DNA of 64,000 nt from Felis catus (lineage: Eukaryota), in assembly GCF_018350175.1 (NCBI RefSeq), contig NC_058368.1, forward strand, positions 42,968,001 through 43,032,000, given 5' to 3'. The number at the start of each line of letters is the position of its first letter. The first letter of the stretch is position 1. A model generated the notes under the pieces. That model had not been told where the DNA came from, did not search any database, and saw nothing but the letters and a program-made list of their open reading frames with translations. Both the position numbers and the translations under genes were made by a program. Below are positions 3,008 through 59,775 of this stretch, one piece after another.

Positions 3008-3222
3008 TTTTTTTTTCTTAATGTTTATTTTTGTGACAAAGAAAGAATGAGACAGAGGGAGAGCTGGGGAGGGGCAGAGAGAAAGGGAGACACAGAATCT
3101 GAAGCAGGCTCTAGGTTCTGAGCTGTCAGCACAGAGCCCGATGCAGCTTAAACTCATGGATTGCAAGATCATGACCTGAGCCAAAGTCAGATGCTTAACC
3201 AACTCAGCCATCCAGGTGTCCC
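3008..3222 (-). mobile_element. Can-SINE inserted in L1 ORF2
   Basis: tttttttaatgtttatttt...gagacacagaatctgaagcaggctct...tgtcagcacagagccc...tcatgacctgagccaaagtc...ccaggtgtccc interrupts otherwise continuous L1 sequence. Confidence 0.92.
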
Positions 3223-18834: not shown

Positions 18835-20412
18835 TTTTTTTAATAATTTATTTTTTAATTTACATCCAAGTTAGTTAGTATATAGTACAACAATGATTTC
18901 AGGAGTAGATTCCTTAATGCCCCTTACCCATTTAGCCTATCCCCCTTCCCACAACCCCTCCAGCAACCCTCTGTTTGTTCTCTATAGTTAAAGAGTCTCT
19001 TATGTTTTCTCTCCCTCACTGTTTTTACATTATTTTTGCTTCCCTTCACTTATGTTCATCTGTTTTTATCTTAACGTCCTCATATGAGTGAAGTCATATG
19101 ACATTTGTCTTTCTCTGACTAATTTCACTTAGCTTAATACTCTCTAGTTCCATCCACGTAGCTGCAAATGGCAAGATTTCATTCTTTTTGATTGCCGAGT
19201 AATACTCCATTGTATATATATACCACATCATCTTTATCCATTCATCCGTCGATGGACATTTGAGCTCTTTCCATACCTTGGCTATTGTCCACAACACTGC
19301 TATAAACACTGGAGTGCATGTGCCCCTTCAAAACAGCACACCTGTATCCCTTGGATAGATACCTAGTAGTGCAATTCCTGGGTTGTAGGGTAGTTCTATT
19401 TTAAATTTTTTGAGGAAACTCCATAGTGTTTTGCAGAGTGGCTGCACCAGCTTGCATTGCCACCAACAATGCAAAAGAGATCCTCTTTCTCCGCATCCTC
19501 ACAAACATCTGTTATTGGCTGAGATGTTAATGTTAGCCATTCTGACAGGTGTGAGGTGGTATCTCATTGTGTTTTTGATTTGCATTTCCCTGATGATGAG
19601 TGACGTTGACCATCTTTTCATGTGTTGGTTGGCCATCTGGATGTCTTCTTTGAAGAAGCAGGTATTCATTTCTTTTGCCCATTTCTTCACTGTATTATTT
19701 GGGTTTTTGGGTGTTGAGTTTGATAAGTTCTTTATAGATTTGGATACTAACCCTTTATCTGATATGTTGTTTGCAAATACCTCCTTCCATTCTGTCTGTT
19801 GCCTTTTAGTTTTGCTTATTGTTTCCTTCCCTGTGCAAAAGTTTTTATTTTGATGAGGTCCCAATAGTTCATTTTTGCTTTTGCTTCCCTTGCCTCTGGA
19901 GATGTGTTGAGTAAGAAGTTGCTGCAGCCGACATCAAAGAGGTTTTTGCCTGCTTTCTCCTTGAGGATTTTGATAGGTTCCTGTCTTACATTTAGGTCTT
20001 TCATCCTTTTTGAGTTTATTTTTGTGTATGGTATAAGAAAGTGGTCCAGGTTCATTCTGCATGTCTCTGTACAGTTTTCCCAGCACCGTTTGCTGAAAAT
20101 ACTATCTTTATTCCATTGGATATTCTTTCCTGCTTTTCCAAAGATTAGTTGGCCATACGTTTGTGGGTCTATTTCTGGGTTCTCTATTCTGTCCTATTGA
20201 TCTGAGTGTCTGTTCTTGTGCCAGTACCATACTGTCTTGATGATTACAGCTTTGTAATACATCTTAAAGTCCAGGATTGTGATGCCTCCTGCTTTGGTTT
20301 TCTTTTTCAAGATTTCTTTGGCTATTCGGGGTCTTTTCTGGTTCCATACAAACTTTAGGATTGTTTGTTCTAGCTCTGGGAAGAATGCTGGTGTTATTTT
20401 GATAGGGATTGC
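18835..20412 (-). mobile_element. Carnivore LINE-1 3' end, 5'-truncated, with poly(A)
   Basis: ORF2 C-terminal peptides in ORFs 19094-19309, 19499-19864 and 19816-20055 (KCPSTDEWIK..WYIYTMEYYSAIKKNEILPFA; LDHFLIPYTKINSK); 3'UTR; T-rich tail at about 18835-18857; TSD cagaaaatatt / cagagaatatt. Confidence 0.95.
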
Positions 20413-21280: not shown

Positions 21281-21489
21281 GTTTTTTTCTAAGTTTATTT
21301 ATTTAGTTTTGAGAGAGAGAACACAAATAGCAGAGGGGTGCAGAGACGGGGAGGGAGACAGAGTCTGAAGCAGGCTCCAGGCTCTGTATTGTCAGCACAG
21401 AGCCCGATGCAGGGCTCGAAGTCACAAACTGCAAGATCATGACATGAGTTGAAGTCAGACATTAAACTGACTGAGCTACCCAGGCGCCC
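21281..21489 (-). mobile_element. Can-SINE
   Basis: Reverse SINE ending caggcgccc; TSD-like cctggctggttttt / cctggttgttttt. Confidence 0.92.
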
Positions 21490-21550
21490 TTCCCTGGTTG
21501 TTTTTTAATGTCTTGTATTTGTTTTTAGTGATTTATAACTGATAATTTCT

Positions 21551-24925: not shown

Positions 24926-25567
24926 GAATGTGATTTAAAGTAAGATTATAGAATTAGATAATCCTATGAAAAATGCATATGATGTAGCATTTATTGTTTT
25001 CTTGGCATTTGGTTTTCTACCAAATTGGCCATAATATCTTAGAAGTCCTTAGAATAGAAGTCCTGATAACCACAAAGCTATAATATAAAACAAATGCAGG
25101 GGGTAAAGAAAATTTTCTATAGCTATAGATCAATGATGCAGCTCTAGAAATATCTTAAAAACTTGCAGTAAAGCTGTTTCAGTGTTGTGTTTCCCAGATT
25201 CTGCTTCATTGCTCATTTGTGAAAACAAACATTTGCCATGAAGACATAACTGCCAATTTAGCCTAAATAAGACAAATGAGATAATGAGACCAGTGGCAAA
25301 TGCGAGTTGACAAATCCTGCAGAATGCCCAGCTTCAAGTAAAAAGCTTTCCTTTCCTGCCAAAAGGTCTATATGCTAATGCTAACTAATTTGCCAACCTT
25401 GGCCCTACATTGTTTGACAATAGCTGAGCATCCCAATTTGTTATAGTTGTGACATTAATTTGGATGTAAAATGTGGCTTGATCTAGTAATCTATGCAACC
25501 TCTTCACCCAGCAACCAATCACACAGATGTATACTTTGTACTGAAAAGGCTTACAAATGCAGAGAGG

Positions 25568-25628
25568 TTTTTTGTTTTTTTGTTTTTGTTTTTGTTTTTG
25601 TTTTTTGTTTTTGTTTTGTTTTGTTTTT
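25568..25628. repeat. (TTTTTG)n simple repeat
   Basis: Seen directly. Confidence 0.9.
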
Positions 25629-26851
25629 AAACTCAGGATATATTAATATAGAAAAGGTAGTGGTATAGACATCATAACTGTGACTTTCACCTGTGCATAT
25701 CTTGGTTAGAGTAATAAGGTGAAATAAAGTATGTTATTTACTTTAACATAATGAGGTCATTTGGAATATTTGCCCTGAATCAGTTATTCAAATATCTGTA
25801 ACTTAGCCACCAGTTTTGATGGACTTTGAGAAGTCAATTTAGAGGATTAAAAAATATATATATCTTTTGAATCTTTCCAGAATTACAAAATAACCACAGG
25901 TAATGATTCTCACACATTCTTCAATTCATTTTCCTTATTATTTAAAAGAAAAATGTTCCTATGTGTTTGCATTACTCCTGAAGTAACTTAATTTTGTGGA
26001 TTACAGTAGAAATAAGCTAAAATTTATTTAGAGAAATCTGGTATTTAAAAAAAAATAGGTACTTAACAGTTAATAAATGCTTGTTTTGTGCCTTTAACTA
26101 GGTTAAGCAATAATAGTACTAAAATTGCATATAGGAAGGATAGATTTTGAAAACAAGTGCTTATTTTGACTGAGTATGAATTGGTGTGGGTCATTCATTT
26201 TAGAAGTACACTAGAATTGCAGGGCGCTAATTCACACTTTGTAAACTGTACTAAGACATTTAGTTCCTCTCAGGTAGCTAAAAATGAATGTAAGACATTT
26301 TATAATTACAAAATTAGTACATACTAATTCTACCATCATAAAATCAATTAATCAAAAACCCTTTGGAAAGCTGTTTGGAATGAGGAAGTGAGGAAGAGCA
26401 AACCAGACAGAAGTCAAAGTCTTTTTGTAACCTTTGCTTTGAAAAACATCATTAAAAAATAAATTCATCAAACGGATATATTTCTTCCCAAATTAGGACA
26501 ATTCATGATAATACCCATAAGTTTCTGTAAATAACCTTTTAAATTTCATTTAAAATACATTTATAGAAAATATTGGAGCTTAAAATATTTTAAATTACAA
26601 AAACAGAATTTTGAAACAATATTTTGAATTTTTATCTCCTAGGTCTATATTCTTATTGAGGGGGAAATAATCTAAAAATATAAAGGTCTATTCACAGTTT
26701 TTAAAAATGCATTAAAATGTTTTTAACTCTGCCATCAACTTATAAAATTATAGAAATAAAGAACTGCAAAGAACTTAGAAGTTATATGAACACACTTCTA
26801 GACAAATGGTAACAAATGTTAATTTGATTCTTGAATATTTTCTATTACAAA

Positions 26852-27030
26852 TGTTGCAGGCAGCCTCTAAGATGGCTCCCAGTGATTGTCCCTCCTAGTT
26901 AGTATTCATGCCCTTATTATATATAACTGTCTTTTTTGTTTGTAGGCTGGTAATGACTCACTTATAACAAATAGAATATGGCAAAATTTATGGGACTTCA
27001 CTTCTAAAATTAGGTTACAAAAAAACTTTG
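26852..27030 (+). mobile_element. 5' part of a MaLR LTR, MLT1E/F-like
   Basis: tgttgcaggcagcctctaagatggctcccagtgat...gtattcatgccctt...aatagaatatggcaaaa..atgggacttcacttctaaaattaggttacaaaa. Confidence 0.75.
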
Positions 27031-27130
27031 ACTGATATATTCCCTAATATATCAAGCTACAAAATAGTAGTGCATCCATGGGTCTCATAATAGCCAGGGC
27101 TCTCCAGGCTCTCTAAGGCACAGGCCATAT

Positions 27131-27292
27131 TTGAATGCAAAAGAAGCTGGAGAGGGTCCAGACACCACCACTTGGTCTAAACTGCTAGAAGAACTTTATG
27201 GGAAATCAATATAAAAGTTAAGTGAGAAATGGAAAGGGTTGCTTCCCTGAGTGGTGGTGTCTGGACCCTCTTCAGCTTCTTTTGCATTTCAA
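27131..27292. repeat. Near-perfect inverted repeat: 42/43-bp arms, 77-bp spacer
   Basis: 27131-27172 ttgaatgcaaaagaagctggagagggtccagacaccaccact is the reverse complement of 27250-27292 agtggtggtgtctggaccctcttcagcttcttttgcatttcaa, with one substitution and one 1-bp indel. Confidence 0.97.
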
Positions 27293-27309
27293 GAGTAGCC
27301 ACAACTCAC

Positions 27310-29200
27310 TCATGGAGTTTAATGATAAACATTTCTGATAACCAGGTACAATATGCTTGGTACATCAGCATTCAGATTGTCAACACATTCCAGAACAGAG
27401 TGGCAAGAAGGTAAATCCAGAGTCATGTTATCAGTTGTTGCTTGGTATGAGTGAATTCAGACCCACTGTTAACACTTTAACATCAGTTTACCCCTAAATT
27501 CTGGATACAGCTATATCATGTATACTTTTTAACATCCTTTTATATCTCTTTTCAACAGTAAATTTTTGATCAGTCAAGTCAATCTTCATGTGAGCTACAT
27601 CAATTGAAGATTGAAGATCAATTTTCTTAAATAATATTCTTCTCTGTGATTTCTCATTGGAATATATCCTTTTTTACTCAGTGTCTTTCAAACAACCAAC
27701 ATATCTTTTATTATACCAAACACCAGTAGATGTGCTATTAAACTAATGTTTTGTACACCAAATATATAGTCACAATATATCAAGGGTGTCTTCCAATAAG
27801 ATAAGTGATTATTAAAAAGTTCATTGAATTTGGTTGGGGCCTATCAAGCCTGTGCTCCCAGTCATAACCCACTTAAAAACAATCAGCTCTGACAAATATT
27901 ATATTTTAAGTATCATTGTGTACAATGATTCATCTACTTCCCATTGAGATGACATACCACAGATTATATTTTGCCTTGTTCCTACCAATTGTGTTACCAG
28001 GAAGCCTTTCCTAGTCAATGCTTCTCGGACATTCTTCACAACTTGTTCTGTTGATATTTTTTCTATGAGTGAGTTCCTCTAGCCTGGACTTCCCTGATAC
28101 CCAGGAATTCTCCTCACAACATATTTGACTCCATGGTCATCTACATAAGATACCCATTCTAAACAAGGGATCACACCTTCTCCCAAAATGTCACTCAGGA
28201 AAATCGCCCAATTATTTTAGGGATATTTGTGCTCCACATACCTGTTGTTCATCATCTTTCTAAGTCTTGCCAAATTTGGCTAGTTTCTTGCCAAAGTAAT
28301 CCCTCTAAAATTTCTACCTGGGAAAGTATACACTTTTCAACATGTGGCATGCTTCCAAAAATGCTATTTCTGCTTGGCTCAAAACACTTTGTTATATATT
28401 AAAAGTTCCTGAATCCCTTCAAGATCATTGTGGTCAGTGTTGACTTCACCACTACACTTGCATTGCCACTATTAAGCATGAGTATGGTCTAGAGAAACTA
28501 TTTACATACCCCACGTCATATTGAGGTTATTAGTAAATCATTAATCACATATATTCTTTGCCAGAATCTACTCAATCTATGTGTACTGTAAGAAATTCCT
28601 AAAGGGAATTTGCTTGGGGCTCTAGAAGAGAACATCAATGAGTATGGATCTACACCTTCTCTATAATATTAACCCCCTCATTATGATCAACCTCTTTTCA
28701 GTTCCTATTCTTGATCTCATTACATTCACATTTACTATATTCAGAACAGCAGAGAAGGCTCTGGCATACCAAATAAGCTACAGCAATATAACATTCCTCA
28801 TATCTTGGCAACAACTTTAACAGTGTGTCAGTCTGGTTTGTGGTTATTTAATGCACAGGTGATCAAATATTGTACAATCATAGATCTGTCCAGTGTAAAT
28901 ATAATACTTCTTTCAGCATAAAAACTTGATTAGTGAACACTGCCTATAAACCTTTAACTAAAAGAAGGTTCCAAATGACAAAGATGCAGTAGGGTCATCA
29001 GTGAGTGATGCATCATACTTTTTCCCCTCTGAATTACACAAGAAGAATTTTTTGGCAAAATTCCTAATTCGTCTTTAGTGCAGTGACTTTTTTTCTGGAG
29101 AAAACTGCTGGTGGTCTTCCCCAAGGACCCCAAACTAACTTTTGTCATTTTCTTGCCTGGAGACACTCTTGAGGGAACAAAGCATTAGCAATTTTCCTGA
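27310..29200 (-). pseudogene. env: Envelope-like ORF remnant of the class III ERV
   Basis: RRCR|SILIDVLF furin-type site (28660-28649); EILEGLLWQETSQIWQDLER**T (28320-28246); WEVDES/CTQ*YLKYNICQS (27943-27886); KRYVGC; terminal hydrophobic LIT*LWIYLLATLFWNVLTI*MLMY (~27437-27355) then a short tail and stop. Confidence 0.65.
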
Positions 29201-29299
29201 CATTATCACTCACTTCCTAGTTCCTTTATTTAAGTTACTGTTTACCTGTTTTTCATTATCCCCAAATTTTACCTACTTTCTACTTGGATTGGGTTGAAG

Positions 29300-29540
29300 G
29301 GCTCAGGCACAATCCACAACCATAAAGTTGGGAAAAGCTGTCTTTTCTTTCATCCATTCTCATTCTTGGATTTGTGAGCCACAGATAACCTACATACCAA
29401 AAAAAAGTCAGAGCTGCCAACATAAGGCCTATTTAACCCAACAATTCTTTTGAAATAAGTGCTACAAGAGTCTTAGAGTTAATGTCATGTGCCAAAATGT
29501 CTCTCTTAATAGGAGCCAACAAACTGAATCAAGGCCTTGG
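29300..29540 (-). pseudogene. Possible degenerate dUTPase-like segment after integrase
   Basis: VPRP*FSLLAPIKRDILAHD..LISKELLG*I..LWLTNP..EWMKEK.. at the position where ERV-L carries dUTPase; similarity is weak. Confidence 0.35.
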
Positions 29541-30809
29541 TACCAAGGGATACTATATTACAATAGAAAAAAAAATGTCAAGTGGAAAAGACAAAGATTT
29601 GTATTATGACATCATCTGCTACATATGCACTCCCCATTTCTGCACCCAAAAATATTCCTTTTATATCCTCCCTATTTAAGCATTAAAACCAGTCATCTGC
29701 ATGCAGATAAGTTCTTTGTTCCGTGTTCCATTTTTTAGCAAATGTTTTCATTGACCCTTTCAATTTCTTTTCAAAGCACCACTCTGAAGGTGAGAATGAA
29801 AGAAATATCTCCAAATAATATGGTGCTTTTAGCAGATCAGTACATCACAGTCATTGTGAAGTAGGTCCCTTAAGAGGAGAAAATATATATGGGTGCTTCA
29901 AATTGAAATGATTCAAATTGTTCCTATATTTCTGTAACATTTTGACCATTGTTCCAGTATAGACATTTACAACAACAATAACAAAAAAAGTGGAGAATGT
30001 ACTAATGCCTATCAGAACCCTTATAAATCCTCCAGAAGCTTTAAGTAATGGTTCAAAATGATCTCCCTGATAATAATCAGCTGGACTCTCCCTGTGGAAT
30101 TCATTCCATGGCAAGTTAAAAAAAGAAAAAAAAAAGATCTTTTCTTATCATCATTCTGAAGAGCCATAGGCAACTATTGGTACCTCAACTGAGAACAAAG
30201 AAATATATCTTCATTCAGACGAACTGCCCCTATGGAAACTCATCTCTTATACTCAGCTTGCTACTTCAAATAGTTTTTGAAACATCCCATTCTTGTTCCT
30301 TTAGAATTTTCTGCTAGGATTTTTAGGGAGCATTCCACATCTACTACCTTTTCTTCCTTTCTTGGGATTCCAGAAGTCCTTCCAAAATTAGAGATCTCTG
30401 CAAGTTGGTATTTTTAAGTATCCAGTTGTCTATGACTCACTTAATCAAACACATAGGCAGGCTATCACCTCTGCCCTAGAATTTGTTAAAATCCACACAT
30501 ATTTCCTGAGAATAAACTCCCAGATTTTGTACAAAAAGCTGAACATACTACTCCAAGTAATTTAACCTACTGTACCAATTTGCCCTTTCCTACTTTTCCA
30601 AGAATATTTTTCCTCCACCAGCTGAATTGCTGAAATTCCTTTTTCTGAGTGTTGTCACAGGTACATCATGCTGCTTGCATTGTTTTATCAAAAAGAAACA
30701 TAGAGGTAGGTCATTCAGCAATGGCATATGGAGAAAGAAGGTCCTAGGGTTGGTTAATTGTCATGCAAATGGTAGCCATATTATGTGATGATTCTCCTGA
30801 GGCATCAGC

Positions 30810-30887
30810 TACAGGATTCTGTATATATACAGGATACTGTATATATACAGGATTAATATATATATTAATATATCTATACAGCACTTA

Positions 30888-30928
<41 letters not shown>
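30810..30928. repeat. Compound acaggat-tatatat minisatellite plus (CA)n inside ERV pol
   Basis: acaggattctgtatatat / acaggatactgtatatat / acaggatt.. then about 20 CA units at 30889-30928. Confidence 0.9.
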
Positions 30929-30931
<3 letters not shown>

Positions 30932-32188
30932 TTTCACTTGATAAATGAACTTTCTTTGGAAACTTCCAATGAGAGTCTCAATTGTCTTCATCATAGGCTC
31001 AGAGTTTCCCTTTGGTCTTCTGACACACTTTCTCTGAATTATTCTAACCTTTTTCCCAGCCACAAATCCCATGCAAGATAATTAAGAAAGTAAATTCATT
31101 ATTTTTATCCTGTTTGCCTTTAGTTGCTGGGTGCTGTCTCTACTAGAGCCCAATACCACGTGAATAGTTTTTGGTGAAAGAGGAATGAGTAGCAGTCTAT
31201 TATCATCGTAGCCTATAACAAGGATTTGGGGAAGCATAAACTGACTTCTGTCACAAAGTTCATCGAGCATGATGGCAAGTTGGTAAAATGTCTAACGTCA
31301 TATATTCATTTGGTTCTTATGGTCCCAGTGGCCTAGCACAAGTGCTGTGCTACAGCACTTTCTGTATCCCACAATATGAAACTCTGTTCAGATGTCCACT
31401 TGAATTGTCTTTTTCCTAGCCCACTTAGCTCTTCTTTCACTTTGCTTATTTTAAATAGGCAATAAAATTCCCAAAATTAGGAGGGTGTATAATTAAGAAT
31501 TAAATATATTCATTAAATGCTGGACTGTCTTATTAGTAGTCAAATTCTTCAGAAACAGTAATTTGTTCCTATTTTTGTAAAGCTCTCTTGAGGCACCAAA
31601 TGTATTTCAAAATTTTATTGTCTTAGCCTGCTTCTGAAATTTTGAAAACTATTAACCATTCTCTATAAAACTTATGTGTAACTTTTGTTATCAAGGGGTT
31701 TTTTTTTTGCTTCTTTTCCTCATTCTGTTACTATTATAATGCCAACAACCCAATAATTCAGTCTTTTCTTCACCAATATCATGCTCAAATCTGTCTTCAC
31801 AGAAGTATAATAGTACATGATAAAAGTATAATAGTACATGACAATACCTTTGACAATGTGGTAAAAATGTGTTCAATTTCTACCTATGTAAAGGCAAATG
31901 TGAGTTTTATTTTCTTCTGTTGAAAGTATGAAAATAAAGCATCAACACAATCAATCACAGTATATCAGTCTCCATTAGCTTGTTGTATCTTTTGGATAGT
32001 TTATATCAGATACTCCTATCAACTGCATTGCATTATTCATTCTTTGTTAGTCTACATCAGTCTTCACAATCCTTCTTCCTTTCTCATTCATCAAACTCAA
32101 ATTGCTATAGGGTACATTGATATTATTACCCTCACTTCTACCATTTCTTATGTCAAAGTTGAAATTTTTTGTTGCCCTTGGGAATTCT

Positions 32189-32408
32189 TTTTTTTTTTTA
32201 ATTTTTTAATGTTTATTTATTTTTGAGAGAGAGAGACAGAGTACGAGCAGGGAAGGGGGAGAGAGAGAGGGAGACACAGAGTCTGAAGCAGGCTCCAGGC
32301 TCTGAGCTGTTAGCACAGAGCCTGACACAAGGCTCAAACTCACAAACCGTGAGATCATCACCTGAGCTGAAGTCCGATACTCAACTGACTGAACCACCCA
32401 GGTGCCCC
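32189..32408 (-). mobile_element. Can-SINE (SINEC_Fc-like) inserted in ERV RT
   Basis: Perfect 16-bp TSD tgcccttgggaattct at 32173-32188 and 32409-32424. Confidence 0.96.
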
Positions 32409-32869
32409 TGCCCTTGGGAATTCTATATTGCCTAATATTTATTGACAAATAAGCCTAGGATGGTTCATTTTACATGTCCAATTTATTCTGAATGAGGATA
32501 GGCTTGCCTGAAATTTCACCTAAAGGAGATAACAGCAATGTTTGCCACTTAGATCACACTTATTGTGAAACATGAATTTAGGTAAATACCTTTCAGCTTC
32601 CAGGATTTTGATCTGCAATTGTATTTCACTCATGAATAACTTCATTCATTGAGTACTTTTCAAGAAAGCATTTTCATAACCATCCAATCCTACCAAAGTC
32701 CCTGTAGGGTCTCCTCACTGCCATAGGTAGGGATGCTGGTAAATTAGTTACCTTTATCCAACAAGCCAAAGAGGAAATGCTCCACGTGCCCTGGTATTCA
32801 ACCTAAAAATTTAACATAGCCTTAAGATTATGCTGGGGGAAGCAGTAACAAGTTCCTGGAGTAAGTCAG

Positions 32870-34330
32870 ACTTCACAGATGAGATTAATTTTGCACCATG
32901 TTTCAGCCCTCTTACTTAGTTCTTTTTTTCTTTTTTCCTATTTTAAAGTCATCCAGGTAAGGATAGATTGAATATAACAAGATCCTTTAAGAGAGATGAC
33001 TTTTAAGGTAGATGCTTTGTGGGTATTTTTTTTTTCCATTTTAATTCTCTCCTTTTAAAAAACATGGCAGCACAACTCTACTTGACTTAATATGCCTTCT
33101 TTTTTCAACCATTATCCTTAGGCTTCATTTCCCATTCTCCTTTTTTTGCCCTTTTAAAAATTGCTCTAACCTTTTACACATTCTCAAACTTTACAGAAAA
33201 TATTGAGAAATTAATCCTTTACTATATTGTAATGCTCTTTTGTCCCCTAAATAGAAAGATTGGAGTTTTCTGAATTATTACACCAACATTGTTTGGGGAA
33301 GGAGCATGTCAACAGGGACAACTCTATTTTGATTACTGTATAACTGATCCAATAAAGTTGCCACTATAAGCATTTTATTGTTCAATAGAAATGTTCCATT
33401 TTAACATGGAAGAGGAGACAAGGACAATTCTTTTTTGTGAGTACTTGCTTGATTGCCTTTTACCATTTTGAAGAAGATATATCTGTCACATATTGGTCAT
33501 TAATGGGATGAATGACAAAACCACAACTAATTTTAGGAGATACCCACTCCAAGTAGATGTCTTCATTCTGTAATGTCCAAGCATCAAATTATTAGATTAA
33601 ATTCAATTATCTTCCAATCTTCAAAAGATTACTGGAACATCAACATGAATCATTACTTTTTTCCCCAAATACTGATCTTAAAATTTTTATTGCTATTCTC
33701 TAGTTAATAGTTTAATTTTTGCCAATATAGTCACTGTATCTTTGGGCAGGGGTGGCCATTTTCACTGTTTGCCTCTTTTTTTCCTATTCATTTGTAGTCA
33801 AGTATGTCATATAATTTCCTTGGCAAAATTTTTACCATCCCAGATCACAGATGGACAGGTCACCGCCCAGGGACAAAGTTTTATCATTCCTTTCTTCCCA
33901 TGTTGCCTCTTACCTCATAAATATTTTGCTATATTGAAGAGGGGTCTTTGTGTCAATTCCATGTTTTCCTCTAATCTGCCTGTGACACAGCCATTGATTC
34001 AATTTCAGTTGATACTAAGTTTAGAATCCATGAAAATTCACAAGAAATTTTTGCTTCCATTTGAATGACATGCAATAGGCAATACAGCACTCTGACCTGC
34101 AGTTGCTTTGGGAGGTGAGGCTCCATCTCAAGCAGAACTTGCAGGTGTCTTCACTGTATAGGTGCACTTTTCTAAAAAGACAGGGTCGAAGACAGTTCTT
34201 TTCATTTCAATTAATTAAATCTATCCCTGCCATTTCTTTCCTATTTATTATACTCTGCATGTCACAGAGCCCATCAAGGAGTATGCATAAAGGCATATGC
34301 CTCCCATCACAGCTGCAGTTCACCAGTCAG
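32870..34330 (-). pseudogene. gag: ERV gag remnant (class III type; no zinc knuckle seen)
   Basis: Lies upstream of the protease; degraded RLEDN..I*CLDITE*RHL and C-terminal LSQVELCCHVF..KIPTKHL..SIYPYLDDFK resemble ERV-L Gag as recalled; many stops and frameshifts. Confidence 0.55.
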
Positions 34331-34359
34331 CAGATCACAATAAAGAATTCTGACAGCTA

Positions 34360-34785
34360 GGGGCGCCTAGCTGAGTCTTTTTATTTAAAAACAATTTTTT
34401 TAACATTTACTTATATTTGAGAGAGAGAGACAGAGCATGAGCAGGAAAGGGGCAGAAAGAAAGGGAGACACAGCATCTGAAGCAGGCTCCAGGCTCTGAG
34501 CTGTCAGCACAGGGCCCAACATGGGGCTTGAACTCACGAGCGATGAGATCATGACCTGAGATGAAGTCGGATGCTTAACCGACTGGGCCACCCAAGCAGC
34601 CCAAGCATCTGACTCTTGATTTTGGCTCAGGTAATGATCTCATTGTTTATGAGTTTGAGCCCCGCGATGGGCTCTGCCCTGACAGTGCAGGGCTGCTTAG
34701 AATTCCCTCTCTCCTCCCCTCTCTTGTTTGTGCTCTCTCTCTCTCTCTCAAAATAAATAAACATTTAAAAATATTTAAAAAAATT
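34360..34785 (+). mobile_element. Can-SINE (outer copy, split by a nested SINE)
   Basis: ggggcgcctagctgagtc head at 34360, resumes aagcatctgactcttgattttggctcagg at 34603, tail to about 34785; TSD-like ..agctag on both sides. Confidence 0.85.
34378..34602 (-). mobile_element. Can-SINE nested in opposite orientation
   Basis: Full reverse SINE body between the head and the remainder of the outer SINE. Confidence 0.9.
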
Positions 34786-35077
34786 GGTAGCTAGATGCAA
34801 CTGCCCAGCTTGGTAAAACACAGATAACATATCACTCCACATTCATTTCTGGAGGCAGTAGTCCTGGGTCATATTTCCAGGAGTTTCTGAGTCTAGGATA
34901 ATAGTTTAAAGCAGCTATTTTTTTTTACCTGCATATGTATCTGAATACATCATCATTATGATTATCAGCCTATAGACATATCTTGTCAAAGATATTTTGC
35001 AGTTGTGGAGTTCCGAAATAGATTCGATATATAAGATGTATCTGATTAGCAAAATCACAGAAGACTTCATAAAATTT

Positions 35078-35506
35078 TAGGATAAATTTCCTGTATTGCA
35101 AGCCCACTGCAAAACTTAGTAGCTCTAAACAAACACCATTTCTTTGCTCACTTTTCTATCAGTAGACAGTTTGGTGAGCTGGGGTCAAGCTGGGCTCGGT
35201 TCTTTTGCTCATCTTGCCCATGTTAACTCATGCAGTGACAGTTGTCTGGGACTGGATGATCCCACACAGATGATCTCAATTATATGTCTGGAGCTTTTGC
35301 TGGGTGTCTGGATATTCTTCATCTGTGTGATGTCTCTGTTTACATGATTTCTCATCTTCAAGGAAGCTAAACTGTATTTACTTGCAAAATGAAGGTTCCA
35401 GGGTCCTCAGAGGATGCATTATACCAGTAAAAGAAAGCTGCTGGATCATCCAAGATTCAAAAGGAAAGATGGCTGATCTCACATCTTGTGGGAGGAAAAG
35501 AAAGAA

Positions 35507-35558
<52 letters not shown>

Positions 35559-35615
35559 AGGAAAGGAAGAAAGAAGGAAAGGAAGAAAGAGGGAGAGATA
35601 TTTTAATCCACCACA
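35078..35615 (-). mobile_element. MaLR LTR, MLT1H/G-like, containing a (GAAA)n expansion
   Basis: caaaacttagtagctctaaacaaacaccatttctttgctcac...aagctgggctcggttctt...actcatgcagtgacagtt...ttttaatccaccaca (reverse of a tgtggtggatt LTR start). Confidence 0.72.
35497..35592. repeat. (GAAA)n/(GGAA)n microsatellite
   Basis: Seen directly. Confidence 0.95.
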
Positions 35616-35659
35616 ATCCCTTTAATCAGCACATTGTATTTTTAACAAAGCAGAATCAC

Positions 35660-36000
35660 ATTATGCAATGGAGGATAGTATAGTGGTTAAAAGTGAAGAT
35701 ACTGGTGCTTGGCAATTAGTGAGAATAACAGTATGAAAGGCCATAGAGCATGGCGGTTTAGATTGCAGACTTTGGAACCAATCTACCTAGGTTTGATTCT
35801 TGGTTTCTTCACCTAATATTTGTGTGCCTTGGTTAGGTTACTTAACAATCTGTATTTTGGTTTTTTCTTTGCACAATACAAATGATAATTATTAGTAACA
35901 CATGTGTCATAGGGTTATGTGAGAATCAAATGAGCTAATGTATAATATATGAAGTGCTTGATCTAGTTCCTGAAGCATTTTAAGAACTGAATAAATGTTA
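35660..36000 (+). mobile_element. MIR-like SINE relic
   Basis: agcatggcggtttagattgcagactttggaacc..acctaggtttgattcttgg..tgtgtgccttggttaggttacttaac..catagggttatgtgagaatcaaatgagctaatg. Confidence 0.7.
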
Positions 36001-36299
36001 TGAATCTTTTGTTACTTAATTTACATTGTGCATTGGTTATTATGTTGTTATTTCTTTTAAAAATTTTATAAATGATTATTGACTTGTGGTCAATTATAAC
36101 TCACAGGATTTTTTTCCACATGCGCCACAGTTAATTTCAAATAGACTATTCTTCAAATAGTATTTGAAACTTAAAGCCAGCGTACTGTTTTAATCGATAA
36201 ATTATGGTTTTATACATTCATTTTGGTTTACAAATATGTTTTTCATTTTAATTGTTTTACTATTGGAAATTTCTCCAGTAACTTTTCCATTATAGCTAT

Positions 36300-37650
36300 T
36301 GTGACATTCTGAAGTATGTGATAAAATATATATACAGTTTTTGTCTGAAGAAATCTAAACACTACCAAGGATTTTTTATTTTTCCTTTTTTCTGTGTCCT
36401 ATTGGATTAAAAATTAATCCTTTTCTCCTTTCATTTTTACAAAGCTGGAAAACTATACACTCCATTATATACTTTTACTAACTTTTCCTACCTCTTAAAC
36501 ATACTTTATTTTTTAATGTTTTTCTACTTCATTCATGTTAAAGAGGCTGACATGTTATAAAATTTGTCAAATATTCCCATTCCGTCCTTTAAGTTTTGTC
36601 CTACTAAATTGTATTTCTACTTTGTTTCAAAACAAACAAAAATAATTTATTTTATAAGCCTTATACTTATGCTTTATACTTTTTGTATACTTAATCTAAT
36701 TTATTGAAATGTTTTATTTATGTTTTGCCCACTATTATTTTTTGCTCCTCACTTTTTAGTGTGTTTGCATCTTTTCTTGCCCAACTATCTCATTTAGTAA
36801 ATTTTCAACAAATGTCTGGAGTTATAAACTCTATTGGTGAAAATGTTTTGTTTCCTTTCTCGATATTAATTTAGCTAGATATAGAGGCAAATACTGTGAT
36901 TTATTTTCTTTCACTATCCTAACTATTCTATGTATTGTTCTGATAGGATGTCCTACTTCAGATAACAGATTTCTAATTCAGGTAGTATTTGAGTATTTTC
37001 CCATTTTCCTTGAGATTTTATTTTCTAATTTATTTTTCCTAAGCATGCTTTTTATCCTTATGTTTGTTTGTCTCATACAGCAGTGGCATATATTTTCATT
37101 CTAATGCATTTTTTGTTGTTGTTAATTACAGAAAATTTGAGACATTGTTTATTTGAATTCGGATGTTCTCCCAACTGTTCTATTCTCTTTTACTGGAAAT
37201 TCCATGATATATAACTCATAATTACTCCATCTATCTTTTATGTTTTTCATTTTGTAATGCCTTGGATGATTATCTCAATGATAACTTTTGATTCATTAAT
37301 TCTCTTTCCCTGTTCTCAAACTACTATTTATCCTTTCCTCTTATTTTCATTTCAATTGTTTTCCGTTCTGACAATTTTCTTCTTTTTCTTATTTTCTGAT
37401 CTTGTTTTATGGACACTATTTTCTTCATAGTCACTCTGAGCTTTAAAAGTACACTTATTTTAATATCTTCAGAGCATTCTGGTATTTTTAATTCAACATT
37501 GTGAAATTTACTTATTTTTTGTGTTTTTTTCTGCATGGCTTTGGGTTTCTTTTTGTATGATGTAATTTTGTTCTGCAGGTCCACATTTCACATAAGTTTT
37601 CCTTTCTTTATGTTCATTTTTCTCCACAAATAATTTTACAGTTGTCTCAC
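36300..37650 (-). mobile_element. Very old L1 (L1M-type) fragment
   Basis: T-rich text typical of antisense old L1 ORF1/5' region; weak. Confidence 0.4.
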
Positions 37651-40600
37651 ACCCCAGCTACTTCCCAGGGACCACACCTCAGAGGCAATATTGCTTTGTA
37701 GATACCTTCAAGGAGACTGCATAATAATCTTCAACAGTACAGATTCACTAGGCTTCTGGATATGAAATTAGTTCTGTTTTCTCCCTTTTCTAAGGCAAAT
37801 AGTGAATTATGGACCCAAACCTGAAGAGACAGTTGGATCTTCTTTTGCTTCCTTTCACTTGTGAGGAAACATGATCCTAGTCCCAGACTTCACCCAGAGT
37901 GCATCCACCTCTAGTCAGTGTCATCCTGTTTCCTTGTCAAGATTGAAGTTCCAGGCCCCATTATCTTCTCACAGTATCCAAAGATATACTTTTAGTTCCC
38001 ACTCACTAATGTGAGTTTTCCTCTGACCCATAAAATCAGTTTTAATGGACGGAGAAGACTATGGAAAACTTGAATATCATATTTAGAAAGTGGCAGAGAC
38101 TAATGTCTCTGAATAACTATGGACAAGATCTGCCATGTGGACCTGTTTTTATAGTCACCTTTGCTATAAGAGCAAAAGGAAGACTCTTGAGTTACATATT
38201 TGAAGATTGTTATCAGAGGTTATTCACCTGGGTTAATGGTAAATGGTAAACACTTGAGTGTTTTAAGGTTTTAGTAGCAACTTATTAAGTGTTGAATTTT
38301 CTGCTGCACTATGGTGATAAAAAGAGGATTGTGCTTTTTAATTTTTTTTTCCTTTGCTTCAAAAGATTTGTTTGGAGTCTACCCCAAACCAAATCCATCA
38401 GCATATGAATATGCAAAAAGCATTATATTTCTCATATAATACTGTTAAAAAATCCCCCCAATTAATTCAAAATTAGATAACCATCACTAATGTTTATTAA
38501 CTTTATTCTCCAAATGGTATAAGTTTGGCTTTGCACATGTAACAATCTGGAAGTAAAGATTTTGGAAGACTTACTGCTATCCTTATCATCCACCCAGAAG
38601 TTACGATTCCTTATCATTCCTTTCTAAAAATATGCACTTCTAAATTAGATAATATTCTTTTATGTAACAGTTTATTAAGACCTCAGAAGATTCTTTCTAG
38701 GTGAACTTATATGTTTGATTTTTTTGTTTTATTATTGATCATATGATCTGCATATAGTTTTTGAAGATTTGCTCTTAAGATGTAGTGTCTTTATAGTAAC
38801 ATGGATATGTTACTTGAAGGATGCCATCCATGTCAAATTTTATATCTGTGGACGTTTTTAACTTATTGTCAGTTTTTTTCTTTTGAAATAAAAAAAAAAC
38901 TTCTTAGGTAAACTCAAATATTTTATCTGAATCTTTAGAAAGCTCTTTTGCTCAATTAAATAAGGGAATATTTTGTTTGTTGAAGATTTCTTAATTTTAC
39001 TATTTTAGTATCTGTGATGATATGACTATTCCTTGTATTTATTTCACTTTTCTATCACTAGTCTGTTCTGTATTTTTGGTCAGAATTAAGTCCAATGTAT
39101 GATTGTCTCCTCTTATAATTTTTGCATTAAAACATACTGTTTATTTAATTTAGCAGTGTTGCAAATCTTGTGTTTAGCTTGTTGAACTGCTAAGTGGACA
39201 TTCAGATATTCGAAAATTTCCTTTTTTCAAAAACAATTTACATATATGTTTTTAACTGTGATAGAAAAACACACACTTTGCCTACCTAAAGCATGCTGTC
39301 TTGTGGCCACATGATAATACTCCACAGCTCTTACCTAGTCTTTTCCTTCTTTCCTTTGGAATAACTTTTAGAATGTTTTATGCCTGTGGATTCCTCTCTC
39401 TATTATCTATTTATCTAAATATCTATCTATGTTATCTATCATTTTTTACTATTACACCCGTACTCCAAATAATGGATGGGTTATTTGGGGGAGAAAGTTC
39501 ATTTTCTTTTATCATATTTCTGTTATGAATTCCATATACTAGAATCATTCTCAAGATTTACCTGGTGGATGGGCCCATGAATTTTGGTATCAACTCTCAC
39601 ATAGCTGTGAACTTTAAGATACTGAACTCTAAGCCACCAAATGTGTGTATCTGCATATGTGTGTGTATATATGTGTACATATGTAGATACTATTCATGTA
39701 GTCATAGGTATGTGAAGTGAGTAGTATGTCAGATGACTTCAATAAATGTTAACTATTTTTTTTATTTTCTATGAAGTTGTTTTAATACTTCTTTTGTTAA
39801 AATTCCCATACAAAGAAACATTGATATCTGGAATATGAAAGGTTTTACCTTTTTCCTATTATTTTCATCAAAAAAATTATTAGTCACATCACAATCTTCA
39901 TTTGTTTTCAATTCCTGTTCCCCACTCATACGTTTAATTTTATCTGAGTATATTTCTTTATCTTCCTTAAGCTTAAAATTCCATTGATCAGAGACAAAAA
40001 TAGTAACCAAAAATTCCCCTTTTTGATTTTGTTTTGTGTGCTCCAGTCCTTACCTAGGGATCATACTTTCAGAGTAACAGTGCTTCTTGACATTAAACAT
40101 TTCATAGAAGTTTGGATACCAATAGTTTTAGTTTTGGGAATTCTGCAGATTCCTTTTCTTTTTCCCCAAAATACTGATGTTTTTATGTAAGCGGAGCTCT
40201 CTGTTGACCTTAAAAATGCTTTTATCATCAGCAATGACATTTAGAGACTAAATTGTCTTGCATGACAGGAAAATATGTGATATATTATTTAGTTTTTTTC
40301 TATTATTTAACTTAAAAACAATTAGTTTTGCATAGTGATTTTATTCAATCTTCCCTTTCTAATGAAAGAAGATATTGAGAACTAATATCTTTCCTCTACA
40401 ATGACTGCATCCACATTATATTTCAAAACAGGAGTTAACTGTAATTTTCCAAGGAATTTCAGAAGCTTCTAGTGCTGTGCTATATATAATCATGCGACAT
40501 AGCATTTCTGTTCTGCTATACGGTTTGCAAAACATCCTCAAGTACATATAATTTGTACGAAGAAAATAATTTTTAAAAGACCAAAAATGTTCAGATCACA

Positions 40601-46208: not shown

Positions 46209-46431
46209 ATTTTTTCTCAATTTTTATAGGTTCTTCCCTCAAAAATTGTTGTAAATGACATGTGTAAGAATTTTTTTTTCAAACTGAATTGGCAGAAAAT
46301 AATTGCCCATCAAAGTTGAAGAAAGGCTGTCTAACAGACATATTCTCAGAAATCAAAGAACTAATATGTTAATTATCAAATGATAATGTGTAGAACATCT
46401 AGAGTGAAGCTCTATAGAAAAGTTGTAAACA

Positions 46432-46652
46432 GGGGCGCCTGGGTGGCGCAGTCGGTTAAGCGTCCGACTTCAGCCAGGTCACGATCTCCCGGTCCCTGAG
46501 TTCGAGCCCCGCGTCAGGCTCTGGGCTGATGGCTCAGAGCCTGGAGCCTGTTTCCGATTCTGTGTCTCCCTCTCTCTCTGCCCCTCCCCCGTTCATGCTC
46601 TGTCTCTCTCTGTCCCAAAAATAAATAAACGTTGAAAAAAAAAAAAAAGAAA
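46432..46652 (+). mobile_element. Young felid SINE (SINEC_Fc-type), CpG-rich
   Basis: ggggcgcctgggtggcgcagtcggttaagcgtccgacttcagccaggtcacgatctc..gagttcgagccccgcgtcagg; intact A/B boxes, long poly(A); TSD agaaaagttgtaaa(c/t)a. Confidence 0.97.
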
Positions 46653-52075: not shown

Positions 52076-52296
52076 TTTTTTTTAAAGTATTTTTTAATGT
52101 TTATTTATTTTTGAGAGAGAGGGAGACAGAGCATGAGCCAGGGAGGGGCAGAGAGAGGGAGACACAGAATCCAAAGCAGGCTACAGGCTCTGAGCTGTCA
52201 GCACAGAGCCCAATGTGGGGCTCGAACCCATGAACAGTGAGATCAAGACCTGAGCTGAAGCCAGACATTTAACTGACTAAGCCACCCAGGCACCCC
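52076..52296 (-). mobile_element. Can-SINE
   Basis: Reverse SINE; TSD-like tgaatacttta / tgaatatttta. Confidence 0.93.
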
Positions 52297-52319
52297 TGAA
52301 TATTTTAAATTTAAAGGAA

Positions 52320-53163
52320 ATAGATGAAAAAGCATGTGATGTTTATAAATAAGGTTATTAAATATTATAAAGTATTGATTGTTATAATACTGACTCATAG
52401 ATTAAATTCAATCTCAATAAAACTCAAAAAAATATTCATGGGACTTGACCAAATGATTATAAACTTTCTTTGTAATTATAAGTGGTCAAAAATAATTAGA
52501 AGAATCCTGAAAAAAAAAGAAGAAGGGAACTTGCCCTATCAGGTAATGTAATTTATCATAAGGATTTTATAAAATGTTACACGATTAATGTGAACAATGT
52601 GACATTAGATTATTAATGTGAAAATAGAAATAAAACTATTGAATAGACTAAGGAATCCAGAACAGATCCATGCTCATATGCAAATATGCTACACAACCAA
52701 TTTGCTCTGCAGAACACTGGGGAAAGGATGACTATTTACTAATTAATTTTGAAAAAATTATTGTTGGGAAATAATGCTTCATGAATATTTTCATATTGCA
52801 GCACAGTCTAGTATTAAATGACAAGCATTCCTTGGAATTTAGAGATAGGGAACTGCTCAGGAGAGATTTAAAGATTCATCTCCCCTGAATCCATTGGCAT
52901 AATTTCCAAAGGACATAAACCTAGAAATCTTTCTCTCTATCTAAGGATGATTTGTCTATTTTTTAAAGCAAAATTTTCTTTTTCATTTTAGAAAGGCAAA
53001 TGTATAGATCTGACAGCTGCTCCATATAGATAGAAGCTTCATCTTTTTAGGGATCCTCTACTATGGTACAAACCCCACTTCATATGTAGGTATGTCTGAA
53101 CATCATCACATCACTCTGTGTGGGAACATGTGCTACTAAGATGCTTTGCAGGTAAATGGTGTG

Positions 53164-58169: not shown

Positions 58170-58533
58170 TTTTTTTTTTTTAATTTAAGTTAAAGTTAGC
58201 TAACATGTAGTGTAGTATTGGTTTCAGGAGTAGAATTTAGTGATTCATCACTTACATATAACACCCAGTGCTCATCCCAACAAGTGCCCTCCCTAATGCT
58301 CATCACCCATTTAGCACCTCCCCTCTAGCAACCCTGTTCTCTGTATTTAAAAGTCTTTTTTAGTTTGCCTCCCACTCTGTTTTTCTTATTTTCCCTTCCC
58401 TTCCCCTATGTTCATCTGTTTTGTTTCTTCAATTCCACACATGTGTGAAACCATATGAACTTTGTCTTTCTCTGACTGACTTATTTTGCTTAGTACATAA
58501 TTTCATTCTTTTTGATCCCCAACAATATTCCAT

Positions 58534-58580
<47 letters not shown>

Positions 58581-59349
58581 CTTCGTATCCATCCATCAGT
58601 CAATGGACATTTGGGCTCTTTCCTTAATTTGGCTATTGTTGATAGTGCTGCTATAAACATTGGGGTACATGTGCCCCTTTGAATCAACAGTTTTTTAATC
58701 CTTTGGATAAACACCTAGTAGTGCAGTTGCTGGATTGTAGGGTAGTTCTATTTTCAATTTTTTGAGGAACCTCCATACTGTTTTCAAGAGTGGCTGCACC
58801 AGTTTGCATTTACACAAACAGTGGAAAAATGTTTTCTGCATTTTGCCAATGTCTGTTGTTGCCTGAACTGTTAATTTTAGCCATTGTGACAGGTGTGAGG
58901 TGGTATCTCATTGTGGTTTTGATTTGTATTTCCCTGATGGTAAATGATGTTGAACATATTTTAATACGTCTGTTAGTCATCTAGATGTCTTCTTTGGAAA
59001 ATTGTCTACTCATGTCTCTGCCTGTTTCTTCACTGTATTATTTGTTTTTGGGGTGCTGTGTTTGATAAGTTTATAGATTTTGGATACTAACCTTTTATCT
59101 GATATGTCATTTGCAATTGTCTTCTCCCATTCTGTAGGTTGACTTTCAGTTTTAGTTGATTGTTTCCTTTGCTGTGGAGAAGCATTTATCTTGAGGAGGT
59201 TCCAATAATTCATTTTTGATTTTGTTTCCCCTACCTCTGGAGAGGTGCCTAGTAGGAAGTTGCTGCAGCTGAGGTCAAAGAGGTTGCTGCCTGTTTACTC
59301 CTCTAGGGTTTTGATGATGTTCTGTCTTTTTTTTTAATTTTTTTTTTTA

Positions 59350-59380
<31 letters not shown>

Positions 59381-59775
59381 AAGTGTGAGCTGGGGTGGGG
59401 CAGAGAGAGGGAGACACAGAATCTGAAGCAGGCTCCAGGCTCTGAGCTCTCAGCACAGAGACTGACGTGGGGCTCGAACTCATGAACTGTGAGATTGTGA
59501 CCTGAGCCGAAATCGGATGCCTAACTGACTGAGCCACCCAGGCGCCCCTGTTGGTTTCCTGTCTCACAGTTAGGTCTTTCACCCATTTTGAGTTTATTTT
59601 TGTGTGCGGTGTAAGAAAGTGGTCCAGGTTCATTCTCCTGTTTGTCACCGTCCAGCTCTCCCAGCACCATTTGTTGAAGAGACTTTTTTCCATTGGGTAT
59701 TCTTTCCTGCTTTGTTGAAGAGCACTTGGTCATACATTTGTAGGTCCATTTCTGGGTCCCCTATTCTTCTGCGAC
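58170..59775 (-). mobile_element. Carnivore LINE-1 3' end, 5'-truncated
   Basis: ORF2 C-terminal peptides ([50 protein letters not shown]); poly(T) at 58170-58181; 13-bp TSD ttgttcaaattct (58157 / 59776); (CA)n at 58537-58578. Confidence 0.95.
59326..59548 (-). mobile_element. Can-SINE nested in L1
   Basis: Reverse SINE ending gagccacccaggcgcccc, interrupting ORF2. Confidence 0.94.

Follow-up and report, generated by a model that had tools for sequence, protein, structure and literature searches.

Old endogenous retroviruses related to ERV-L are catalogued from eutherian genomes in Repbase and Dfam under family names such as HERVL40, HERVL74, HERV16, ERVL-B4 and ERVL-E. ERV-L has been present in placental mammals for more than 100 million years (PMC3758187). 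Its elements are described as lacking an envelope gene, env (PMC3758187, PMC5930517), and, according to PMC5930517, an ERV-L element that has one is not documented. For two further groups, PMC8278194 describes ERV-S, with which env sequences are associated and in which a dUTPase is not identifiable, and XtERV-S of African frogs, where an ERV-L-like gag-pol with dUTPase is followed by an env of class I-like type. Here, we analysed a 64,000-nucleotide stretch of the cat genome (Felis catus, NC_058368.1, positions 42,968,001 to 43,032,000; this whole stretch is called the window below), in which a first-pass annotation made from the letters alone had seen a near-complete, env-bearing provirus related to ERV-L. 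As far as sequence comparison can tell, the minus strand from 32770 to 29279 probably represents the dead and heavily decayed pol of a class III endogenous retrovirus of ERV-L type and great age. We assign a probability of roughly 0.65 to this reading as a whole, that is, to a dead ERV-L-type pol in a provirus whose own env is not demonstrated. In kind, the element is an ordinary genomic fossil.

Proteins were compared with the window using a local protein-to-DNA aligner of our own, which allows frameshifts and long DNA gaps (BLOSUM62; costs of 12 per frameshift, 11/1 for gaps and 14/0.25 for DNA gaps), with dinucleotide-preserving shuffles as controls. Mouse ERV-L pol (P0006, 1124 aa) scored 138 on the minus strand of 26500-35500, against 44.5±4.6 (maximum 54) for 40 shuffles; the plus strand reached 42, and the sequence read in reverse reached 40. 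The alignment runs through the reverse transcriptase (RT) and connection, from residue 96 to residue 457 of P0006, a span that excludes a 7-residue alignment start falling inside a short interspersed element (SINE). It holds 113 identities in 346 residues (33%), 10 frameshifts and 14 stops. When DNA gaps were made very cheap, the aligner reached a z of only 4.7 and produced random chains, so the stricter costs were used instead. Scores of 39-72 were obtained with fourteen further class III-like proteins (fish, amphibian, reptile and one bird), and all three cat betaretroviral RTs stayed at shuffle level (28-38). Among the retroviral pols compared, a set without gamma-type, foamy or ERV-S RTs, the window is nearest to ERV-L, with P0006 the best by far. 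These scores bear out the earlier assignment of the region to a class III, ERV-L-related pol.

The integrase catalytic core gave a second, separate match. Three of five references were significant here, namely P0006 (score 69, z 6.7-7.8), P0009 (71, z 10.1) and P0011 (54, z 4.1); P0008 (z 1.8) and P0013 (z 0.0) were not. The frameshift-aware search thus returned both RT and integrase at significant levels, the two matches on which the first-pass annotation had staked its retroviral reading. The region is homologous to retroviral pol, falls in class III and keeps the order of the pol domains.

P0006 was reached through a chain of searches in the 2.43-Gb Felis catus assembly (71 contigs), which is the scope of all genome-wide searches reported here. 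A 100-aa RT tile from the window, searched in six frames, found a decayed RT copy, L012, on C17 (E 1.4e-5, 37% identity). The L012 RT in turn had at least 123 matches at E ≤ 0.1 with 150 of 492 candidates scored, and it returned the window reciprocally (E 0.0019, 38% identity). Its best match among the candidates scored was L058 (E 7e-19), which has a 265-aa open RT frame recognised by Pfam as RVT_1 (E 9e-13). Against a protein collection, this frame found P0006 at 65% identity. The domains of P0006 comprise RT (140-304), an RNase H-like domain (368-467), RNase H (558-698), the integrase core (772-868) and dUTPase (952-1056). Proteins of Mus musculus and Mus spicilegus fall in its 90% cluster (three of 40 members read are named), and it is encoded at 100% identity on contigs of 6.5-7.6 kb with a gag frame of 576 aa, a pol frame of 1182 aa, a 494-bp long terminal repeat (LTR) 149 bp past pol, and no env. 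This layout equals the published env-less architecture of mouse ERV-L.

Profile and word-based searches gave a sparser picture. Pfam recognised a retroviral family in none of the three whole read-through frames, and in none of 78 overlapping tiles of 200 aa at E ≤ 10, where eight tiles had unrelated weak hits (E 0.037-0.35). With an 868-aa query from one frame, a word-based protein search returned only five SINE-bearing felid proteins, and the whole read-through frames of six ERV-L loci, used as tblastn queries on the window, returned SINEs only. Queried with P0006, tblastn gave five collinear pieces, each weak (E 0.01-0.43). At the DNA level, genome-wide searches found no paralogue of the window element. 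DNA matches were limited to short stretches of 64-76% identity in a single related copy, L065, which had been located by protein search; those in the RT were 64-71% identical, and one in the integrase (29727-29774) was 75% identical.

Each of the eight peptide words quoted in the first-pass annotation can be read letter for letter on the minus strand at its stated position (Table 1). The ERV-L motifs with which it had compared them, QYRIPGG, CYWALVETE, WQVDYIGPL and SDQGTHFT, are likewise literal in P0006, the first of them in the form KQYRIPGG. The claim that the words are collinear at roughly the expected spacing holds to within 45 bp of P0006 and P0008 between the protease and integrase words. 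We computed the spacings by hand from invariant P0006 positions, leaving out the lengths of the SINE (32202-32406) and of the tandem repeats (30810-30929). From Q103 to D189, 258 bp are expected and 478 are observed, which become 273 once the 205-bp SINE is removed; from D189 to F207, expectation and observation are both 54 bp; and from F207 to W452, 735 bp compare with 746. The next interval, W452 to S626, measures 672 bp, or 552 without 120 bp of tandem repeats, for an expected 522. The last two are 417 bp for an expected 462 (S626 to D780) and 194 bp for an expected 183 (D780 to G841). Upstream, the distance from the D of FGLLDKG to the Q of QYRIP is 328 bp, compared to 330 bp (110 aa, D32-Q142) in P0008, a class III pol with a Pfam protease domain.

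Table 1. Features of the decayed pol, the DNA that follows it and the repeats within and upstream of it, in window coordinates
Feature	Position	Strand	Remarks
Protease active-site remnant FGLLDKG	32770-32750	-	word literal; DTG decayed to DKG; recognised by position only
N-terminal RT word INIRQYRIPKG	32442-32407	-	split from the remaining RT by a SINE
RT word RQYRIPKG	32433-32410	-	word literal
SINE inside RT	32406-32202	-	199-nt direct repeat with 34396-34594, 83%
RT and connection, heavily decayed	32207-31135	-	P0006 residues 96-457
RT word YTVIDCVDALFS	31964-31929	-	word literal
RT word FAFT	31898-31887	-	word literal
WYWALVET	31158-31135	-	word literal; at the end of the RT and connection alignment
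18-bp tandem repeat and (AC)n microsatellite	30810-30854, 30889-30929		Tandem Repeats Finder; inside the RNase H region
YVWILTNS	30501-30478	-	possible RNase H remnant; TDS decayed to TNS
Integrase catalytic core	30090-29706	-	remnants of WQVDYIGPL and SDQGTHFT; significant with 3/5 references
Integrase word PADYYQGDHFEPL	30084-30046	-	word literal
Integrase word SS*GTYFT	29878-29855	-	word literal
LQPNPSR	29299-29279	-	matches LQQPNPSR directly past the dUTPase domain (952-1056) of P0006
Post-pol stretch, env candidate	29003-28086	-	weak paralogues, one being an intact 690-aa open frame
Remainder of the tail	27300-28085		no DNA paralogue, Pfam family or RT recognised
Two further SINEs, back to back	34394-34790		34394-34615 and 34603-34749; supposed gag/leader region

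Several of these words lie in domains that did not align as wholes. The protease domain was significant with none of four references (z -1.1 to 2.5), the QYRIP word alone contributing to the score, and RNase H with none of five (z -1.0 to 0.6). The N-terminal RT word resembles SMKQYRIPGGQE of P0008 (6/12 identical, 11/12 positive) and is 7/12 identical to P0011 and 7/11 to mouse ERV-L pol. At the far end, LQPNPSR agrees with P0006 residues 1061-1066 in six of six residues, 58 residues from the end of mouse ERV-L pol. By our own estimate, a word like this would turn up in that band by chance with a probability of about 0.003; LQPNPSR stands 570 bp past the G of the integrase, 84 bp short of the expected 654. 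The protease, RNase H and pol-end words are probably genuine remnants, given their spacing and the chance estimate for LQPNPSR, even though their domains are statistically undetectable. The end of pol would then lie near 29100.

Taken together with the background above, the element resembles ERV-L in its nearest pol among the references tried (33% across RT and connection, plus significance in the integrase core), in the order and spacing of the positions of QYRIPGG, IDLANAFF, FAFTW, CYWALVETE, TDSW, WQVDYIGPL and SDQGTHFT, and in an LQPNPSR roughly at the place of the mouse LQQPNPSR. It differs in that no dUTPase domain, gag or LTRs are recognisable, and in being far more decayed than canonical copies in the same genome, such as L062, which retains about 50-65% identity to P0006, depending on the domain, from RT to the end of dUTPase. 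Past pol, about 0.9 kb of the window is similar to a long open frame; in mouse ERV-L, only 149 bp separate pol from the 494-bp LTR. Its state, a highly diverged internal fragment with no open frames that predates a carnivore SINE, is the one expected of families of the HERVL40, HERVL74 and HERV16 type, which are often LTR-less. ERV-S (HERV-S), going by its description (PMC8278194), would share the class III pol and, with no significant dUTPase in the window, the missing dUTPase; LQPNPSR suggests an ERV-L-type pol end instead. XtERV-S, as described in the same source, differs in its frog host, its intact genome and the class I-like transmembrane (TM) part of its env.

The first-pass annotation had also spoken of a near-complete provirus, which the searches do not support: neither an LTR pair nor similarity to mouse ERV-L gag was found. 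ERV-L is marked by paired LTRs with TGT...ACA ends and by a tRNA-Leu primer binding site; here, direct repeats within 26000-37500 comprise only SINEs and a 30-nt chance pair. Likewise, blastn at word size 7 between 33000-38000 and 25000-29400 gave chance-level matches only, and the post-pol sequence and LTR of mouse ERV-L have no match in the DNA that follows the window pol. Mouse ERV-L gag (576 aa) scored 39.0 against 35700-32700, compared to 39.9±3.9 for shuffles (z -0.2), a result that decay may explain.

The element had further been called ancient and likely pre-carnivoran. Its great age stands, because the RT and connection retain only 33% identity, about 350 codons have accumulated 10 frameshifts and 14 stops, a SINE sits within the RT, and the genome-wide searches found no DNA paralogue, the short L065 matches of 64-76% aside. 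The date is less firm; we infer that the insertion may predate the carnivore radiation and be of the order of 100 million years old or older. The SINE in the RT, which we take to be a Can-SINE, has copies 77-82% identical at other fetched loci, as well as exonised copies in Felis catus and Panthera leo proteins. On our preferred reading, a retrovirus would have been reverse-transcribed and integrated into the germ line of a remote ancestor, and the resulting provirus would have decayed neutrally ever since. Later hits would include the carnivore SINE in the RT, the microsatellite and the two further SINEs upstream. Its gag and both LTRs would have decayed past recognition, and the element would be inert now. 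The DNA from about 29100 to 27300 may be the decayed 3' end of the element plus flanking DNA, with another old coding fragment either present in addition or standing in their place.

This last region, hereafter the tail (27300-29200 in the first-pass annotation), had been described as 1.9 kb of protein-like sequence, in a provirus that appears to keep an envelope gene. Neither part of that description fared well: open reading frames (ORFs) of 40-80 aa occur on both strands, what speaks for coding content is a set of weak paralogue matches, and no env family or env reference matches the tail. The matches concern 29003-28086. The frame holding 27300-29099 found C13:111052194-111052520 (E 5.5e-6) and C18:133190620-133190943 (E 0.014), the latter inside a stop-free open frame of 690 aa. 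A neighbouring window frame, 28344-28086, matched C18:133191301-133191564 (E 0.4) inside the same open frame. With a 145-aa tile (28578-29012), the best match was a decayed paralogue at C13:111052194-111052415 (E 8.1e-7, 42% identity), followed by C18:133190746-133190943 (E 0.004, within the 690-aa frame), C1:39147238 (E 0.016) and C22:25016578 (E 0.03). We take the homology of this stretch to be real, given that the two C18 matches are in phase and collinear. By sequence, 29003-28086 is a decayed relative of a long open frame of an unrecognised family.

Searches for env in the tail were negative throughout. Pfam gave no retroviral hit in 27 tiles of 100 aa (five had unrelated hits), and neither these nor the 78 tiles of 200 aa had a hit to the foamy-type Env PF03408, a low-power test. 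Three intact cat env frames of gamma type aligned to the tail at z -1.4 to -0.1, a divergent TLV_coat env from one viral contig at z -0.9 to 1.1, and five last ORFs of beta type from betaretrovirus-like viral contigs at z -0.7 to 0.1, with negative phmmer scores. A tail tile also scored negatively in phmmer against six cat envs. The three cat frames and the TLV_coat env are of class I type, the type to which the TM part of XtERV-S is likened. A faint likeness to the CX6CC region of gamma-type TM proteins is seen in CQSLLCC (CX4CC, 28766-28746), which follows ...LLKLLPRYEEC...; it is the sole such word in the window, and phmmer of this region against the six cat envs returned nothing. Among viral contigs, a search for class III pol patterns found a single contig, L073, which is of TLV_coat type and not foamy.

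Wider searches of the tail were no more productive. Genome-wide, its DNA has no paralogue, and it has no match in 68 other fetched loci (about 0.28 Mb). An exhaustive HMMER search of a tail tile against 1.84 billion proteins had no hit at E ≤ 0.001, a word-based protein search had 13 candidates of which none reached E ≤ 10, and a PDB search had one unrelated hit (E 0.55). A 49-aa natural ORF of the tail, placed in the ESM Atlas, fell below the recognition threshold among bacterial nuclease clusters, which we took as noise. Three other origins were considered and rejected. A second RT, as hinted at by the word YVDD (28147-28136), gave z -0.9 to 1.7 with four references over both strands; on the minus strand the four RT references gave z -0.7 to 0.4, and the word is a chance occurrence. 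Words such as YSKCECNEIK recall zinc fingers, and Pfam zf-C2H2 was not found. As to an L1 origin, the tail failed to match any L1 piece of the window or of the loci, and it had few genome-wide hits.

A number of points weigh against stopping at a dead pol whose env is not demonstrated. The stretch 29003-28086 begins about 100 bp past the expected pol end, on the same strand. Its two C18 matches share phase, with a spacing of 681 bp compared to 659 bp in the window. The 145-aa tile also matches C1:178210007-178210213 (E 0.023) within a 687-aa open frame. About 3 kb upstream of this frame, on its strand, there is an RT-like match (C1:178213058-178213522), which puts the frame in the position of env in a provirus. 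The nine env references are of gamma or beta type, a set without foamy-virus, ERV-S or XtERV-S env, and the power of the env tests is low because Pfam also misses the RT and integrase that the aligner found. The related copy L065 may be truncated past its integrase. Finally, the integrase C-terminus and dUTPase were significant with none of five references (z -0.8 to 1.1), and a dUTPase is a mark of ERV-L.

Under one rival explanation, the tail stretch would be separate DNA that came to lie beside pol by chance, either a gene fragment of another retroelement or a host processed pseudogene. The separate piece would then be kin of the 687-690-aa open frames. The comparison of post-pol regions is in keeping with this: the stretch is not common to any of the five ERV-L-type regions compared (window tail, L058, L059, L062 and L065), as neither the post-integrase DNA of L059 (3.4 kb) and L065 (6.1 kb) nor the post-pol DNA of L058 and L062 has anything in common with the tail, and the post-pol sequence and LTR of mouse ERV-L lack it too. 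The paralogues of the tail point the same way, none of them lying near an ERV-L-type RT match (150 of 492 RT candidates scored), as does the absence of the C18 and C1 open frames from 81 TLV_coat matches (78 of 775 candidates scored) and 78 GP41 matches (104 of 104 scored) in genome-wide scans. Against it, the shared strand and direct adjacency to the pol end would be coincidence, and neither a target-site duplication nor a poly(A) tail nor an element boundary could be made out. We judge this explanation to be somewhat unlikely.

Alternatively, the provirus may have been an env-bearing relative of ERV-L that spread as an infectious particle, with 29003-28086 as the decayed front of its env. 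The start of the stretch just past pol fits this proposal, as do the two collinear, same-frame matches in the intact 690-aa frame, the 687-aa frame in the place of env past an RT-like match, and the decayed C13 paralogue. A frog ERV-L-like virus with env, XtERV-S, is moreover described in PMC8278194. The same scans that keep the two open frames out of the TLV_coat and GP41 matches count against an env identity, and neither Pfam nor the nine env references find anything on the tail. The related copies L065 and L059 lack the stretch, the tail paralogues lie apart from ERV-L-type RT matches, no 3' LTR is seen past the stretch, and about 1.8 kb is short for an env and an LTR. According to PMC5930517, moreover, a mammalian ERV-L with env is not documented. 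On balance, we consider this proposal unlikely. Still more doubtful is the specific form in which a mammalian ERV-L relative would carry, after pol, the remains of an env akin to the 687-690-aa frames and outside the TLV_coat and GP41 families. As for a chance origin of the motif chain with no retroviral remnant at all, the lack of a retroviral Pfam domain in any frame or tile and the SINE-bearing proteins as sole word-search hits would fit, and it is already refuted, its probability close to nil, by an alignment 20 standard deviations over shuffles, reciprocal genome-wide matches with other RT copies, L065 DNA matches in RT and integrase, and the agreement in motif spacing.

What the locus means depends on the tail. 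On the preferred reading, as a decayed ERV-L-type pol fragment, it has many thousands of counterparts in any mammalian genome and is of little consequence. If an env did follow the pol, the locus would be the fossil of an infectious virus from which ERV-L without env descends, and would hint at a so far undescribed kind of env whose frame survives open in a living genome. It would then bear on the route by which this lineage gave up infectivity and turned into an intracellular 'superspreader'. The 687-690-aa open frames merit attention in their own right.

The searches also brought up other retroviral loci in the cat genome. Eleven open frames of 660-690 aa share a near-identical GP41-type TM domain (E ~2e-40; for example C17:91699344-91699925, C1:202250166-202250747 and C13:28767737-28768318) and look like a young betaretrovirus-like family with env intact. 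Full-length TLV_coat env frames (671-785 aa) with no stop or a single one number at least 19 (for example L067-L072, including C16:135507815, C13:3168888 and C1:57397921); those fetched carry LQNRRGLD...CAALKEECC and belong to young gamma-type endogenous retroviruses. A genome-wide dUTPase search gave 54 matches, most of them betaretroviral loci with the order gag-dUTPase-protease-RT, many on C47 (L017-L045). Three, L016, L026 and L030, look like host-type dUTPase copies with no retroviral neighbours. As a route to ERV-L, the dUTPase search was abandoned, all 30 typed fetched loci being betaretroviral or host-type. The viral contig L073 (IMG/VR, 10305 bp) is a complete retrovirus with gag (758 aa), pol (1360 aa) and a TLV_coat env (687 aa). 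Its pol runs from protease through integrase and has a C-terminus of murine leukaemia virus type, so that by env and integrase tail it is not class III.

Elsewhere in the window, the SINE family found in the RT recurs at 1537-1722, 3023-3194, 21307-21506, 46415-46633, 52084-52330 and 59389-59564. Further microsatellites are an (AAAG)n tract of 23 copies (35497-35590) and a T-rich (TTTTTG)n array (25568-25628). Two regions, 19045-20004 and 58434-59327, have 50-80% protein-level similarity to the flanks of L034 and L039 and are probably copies of a repeat of the long interspersed element type.

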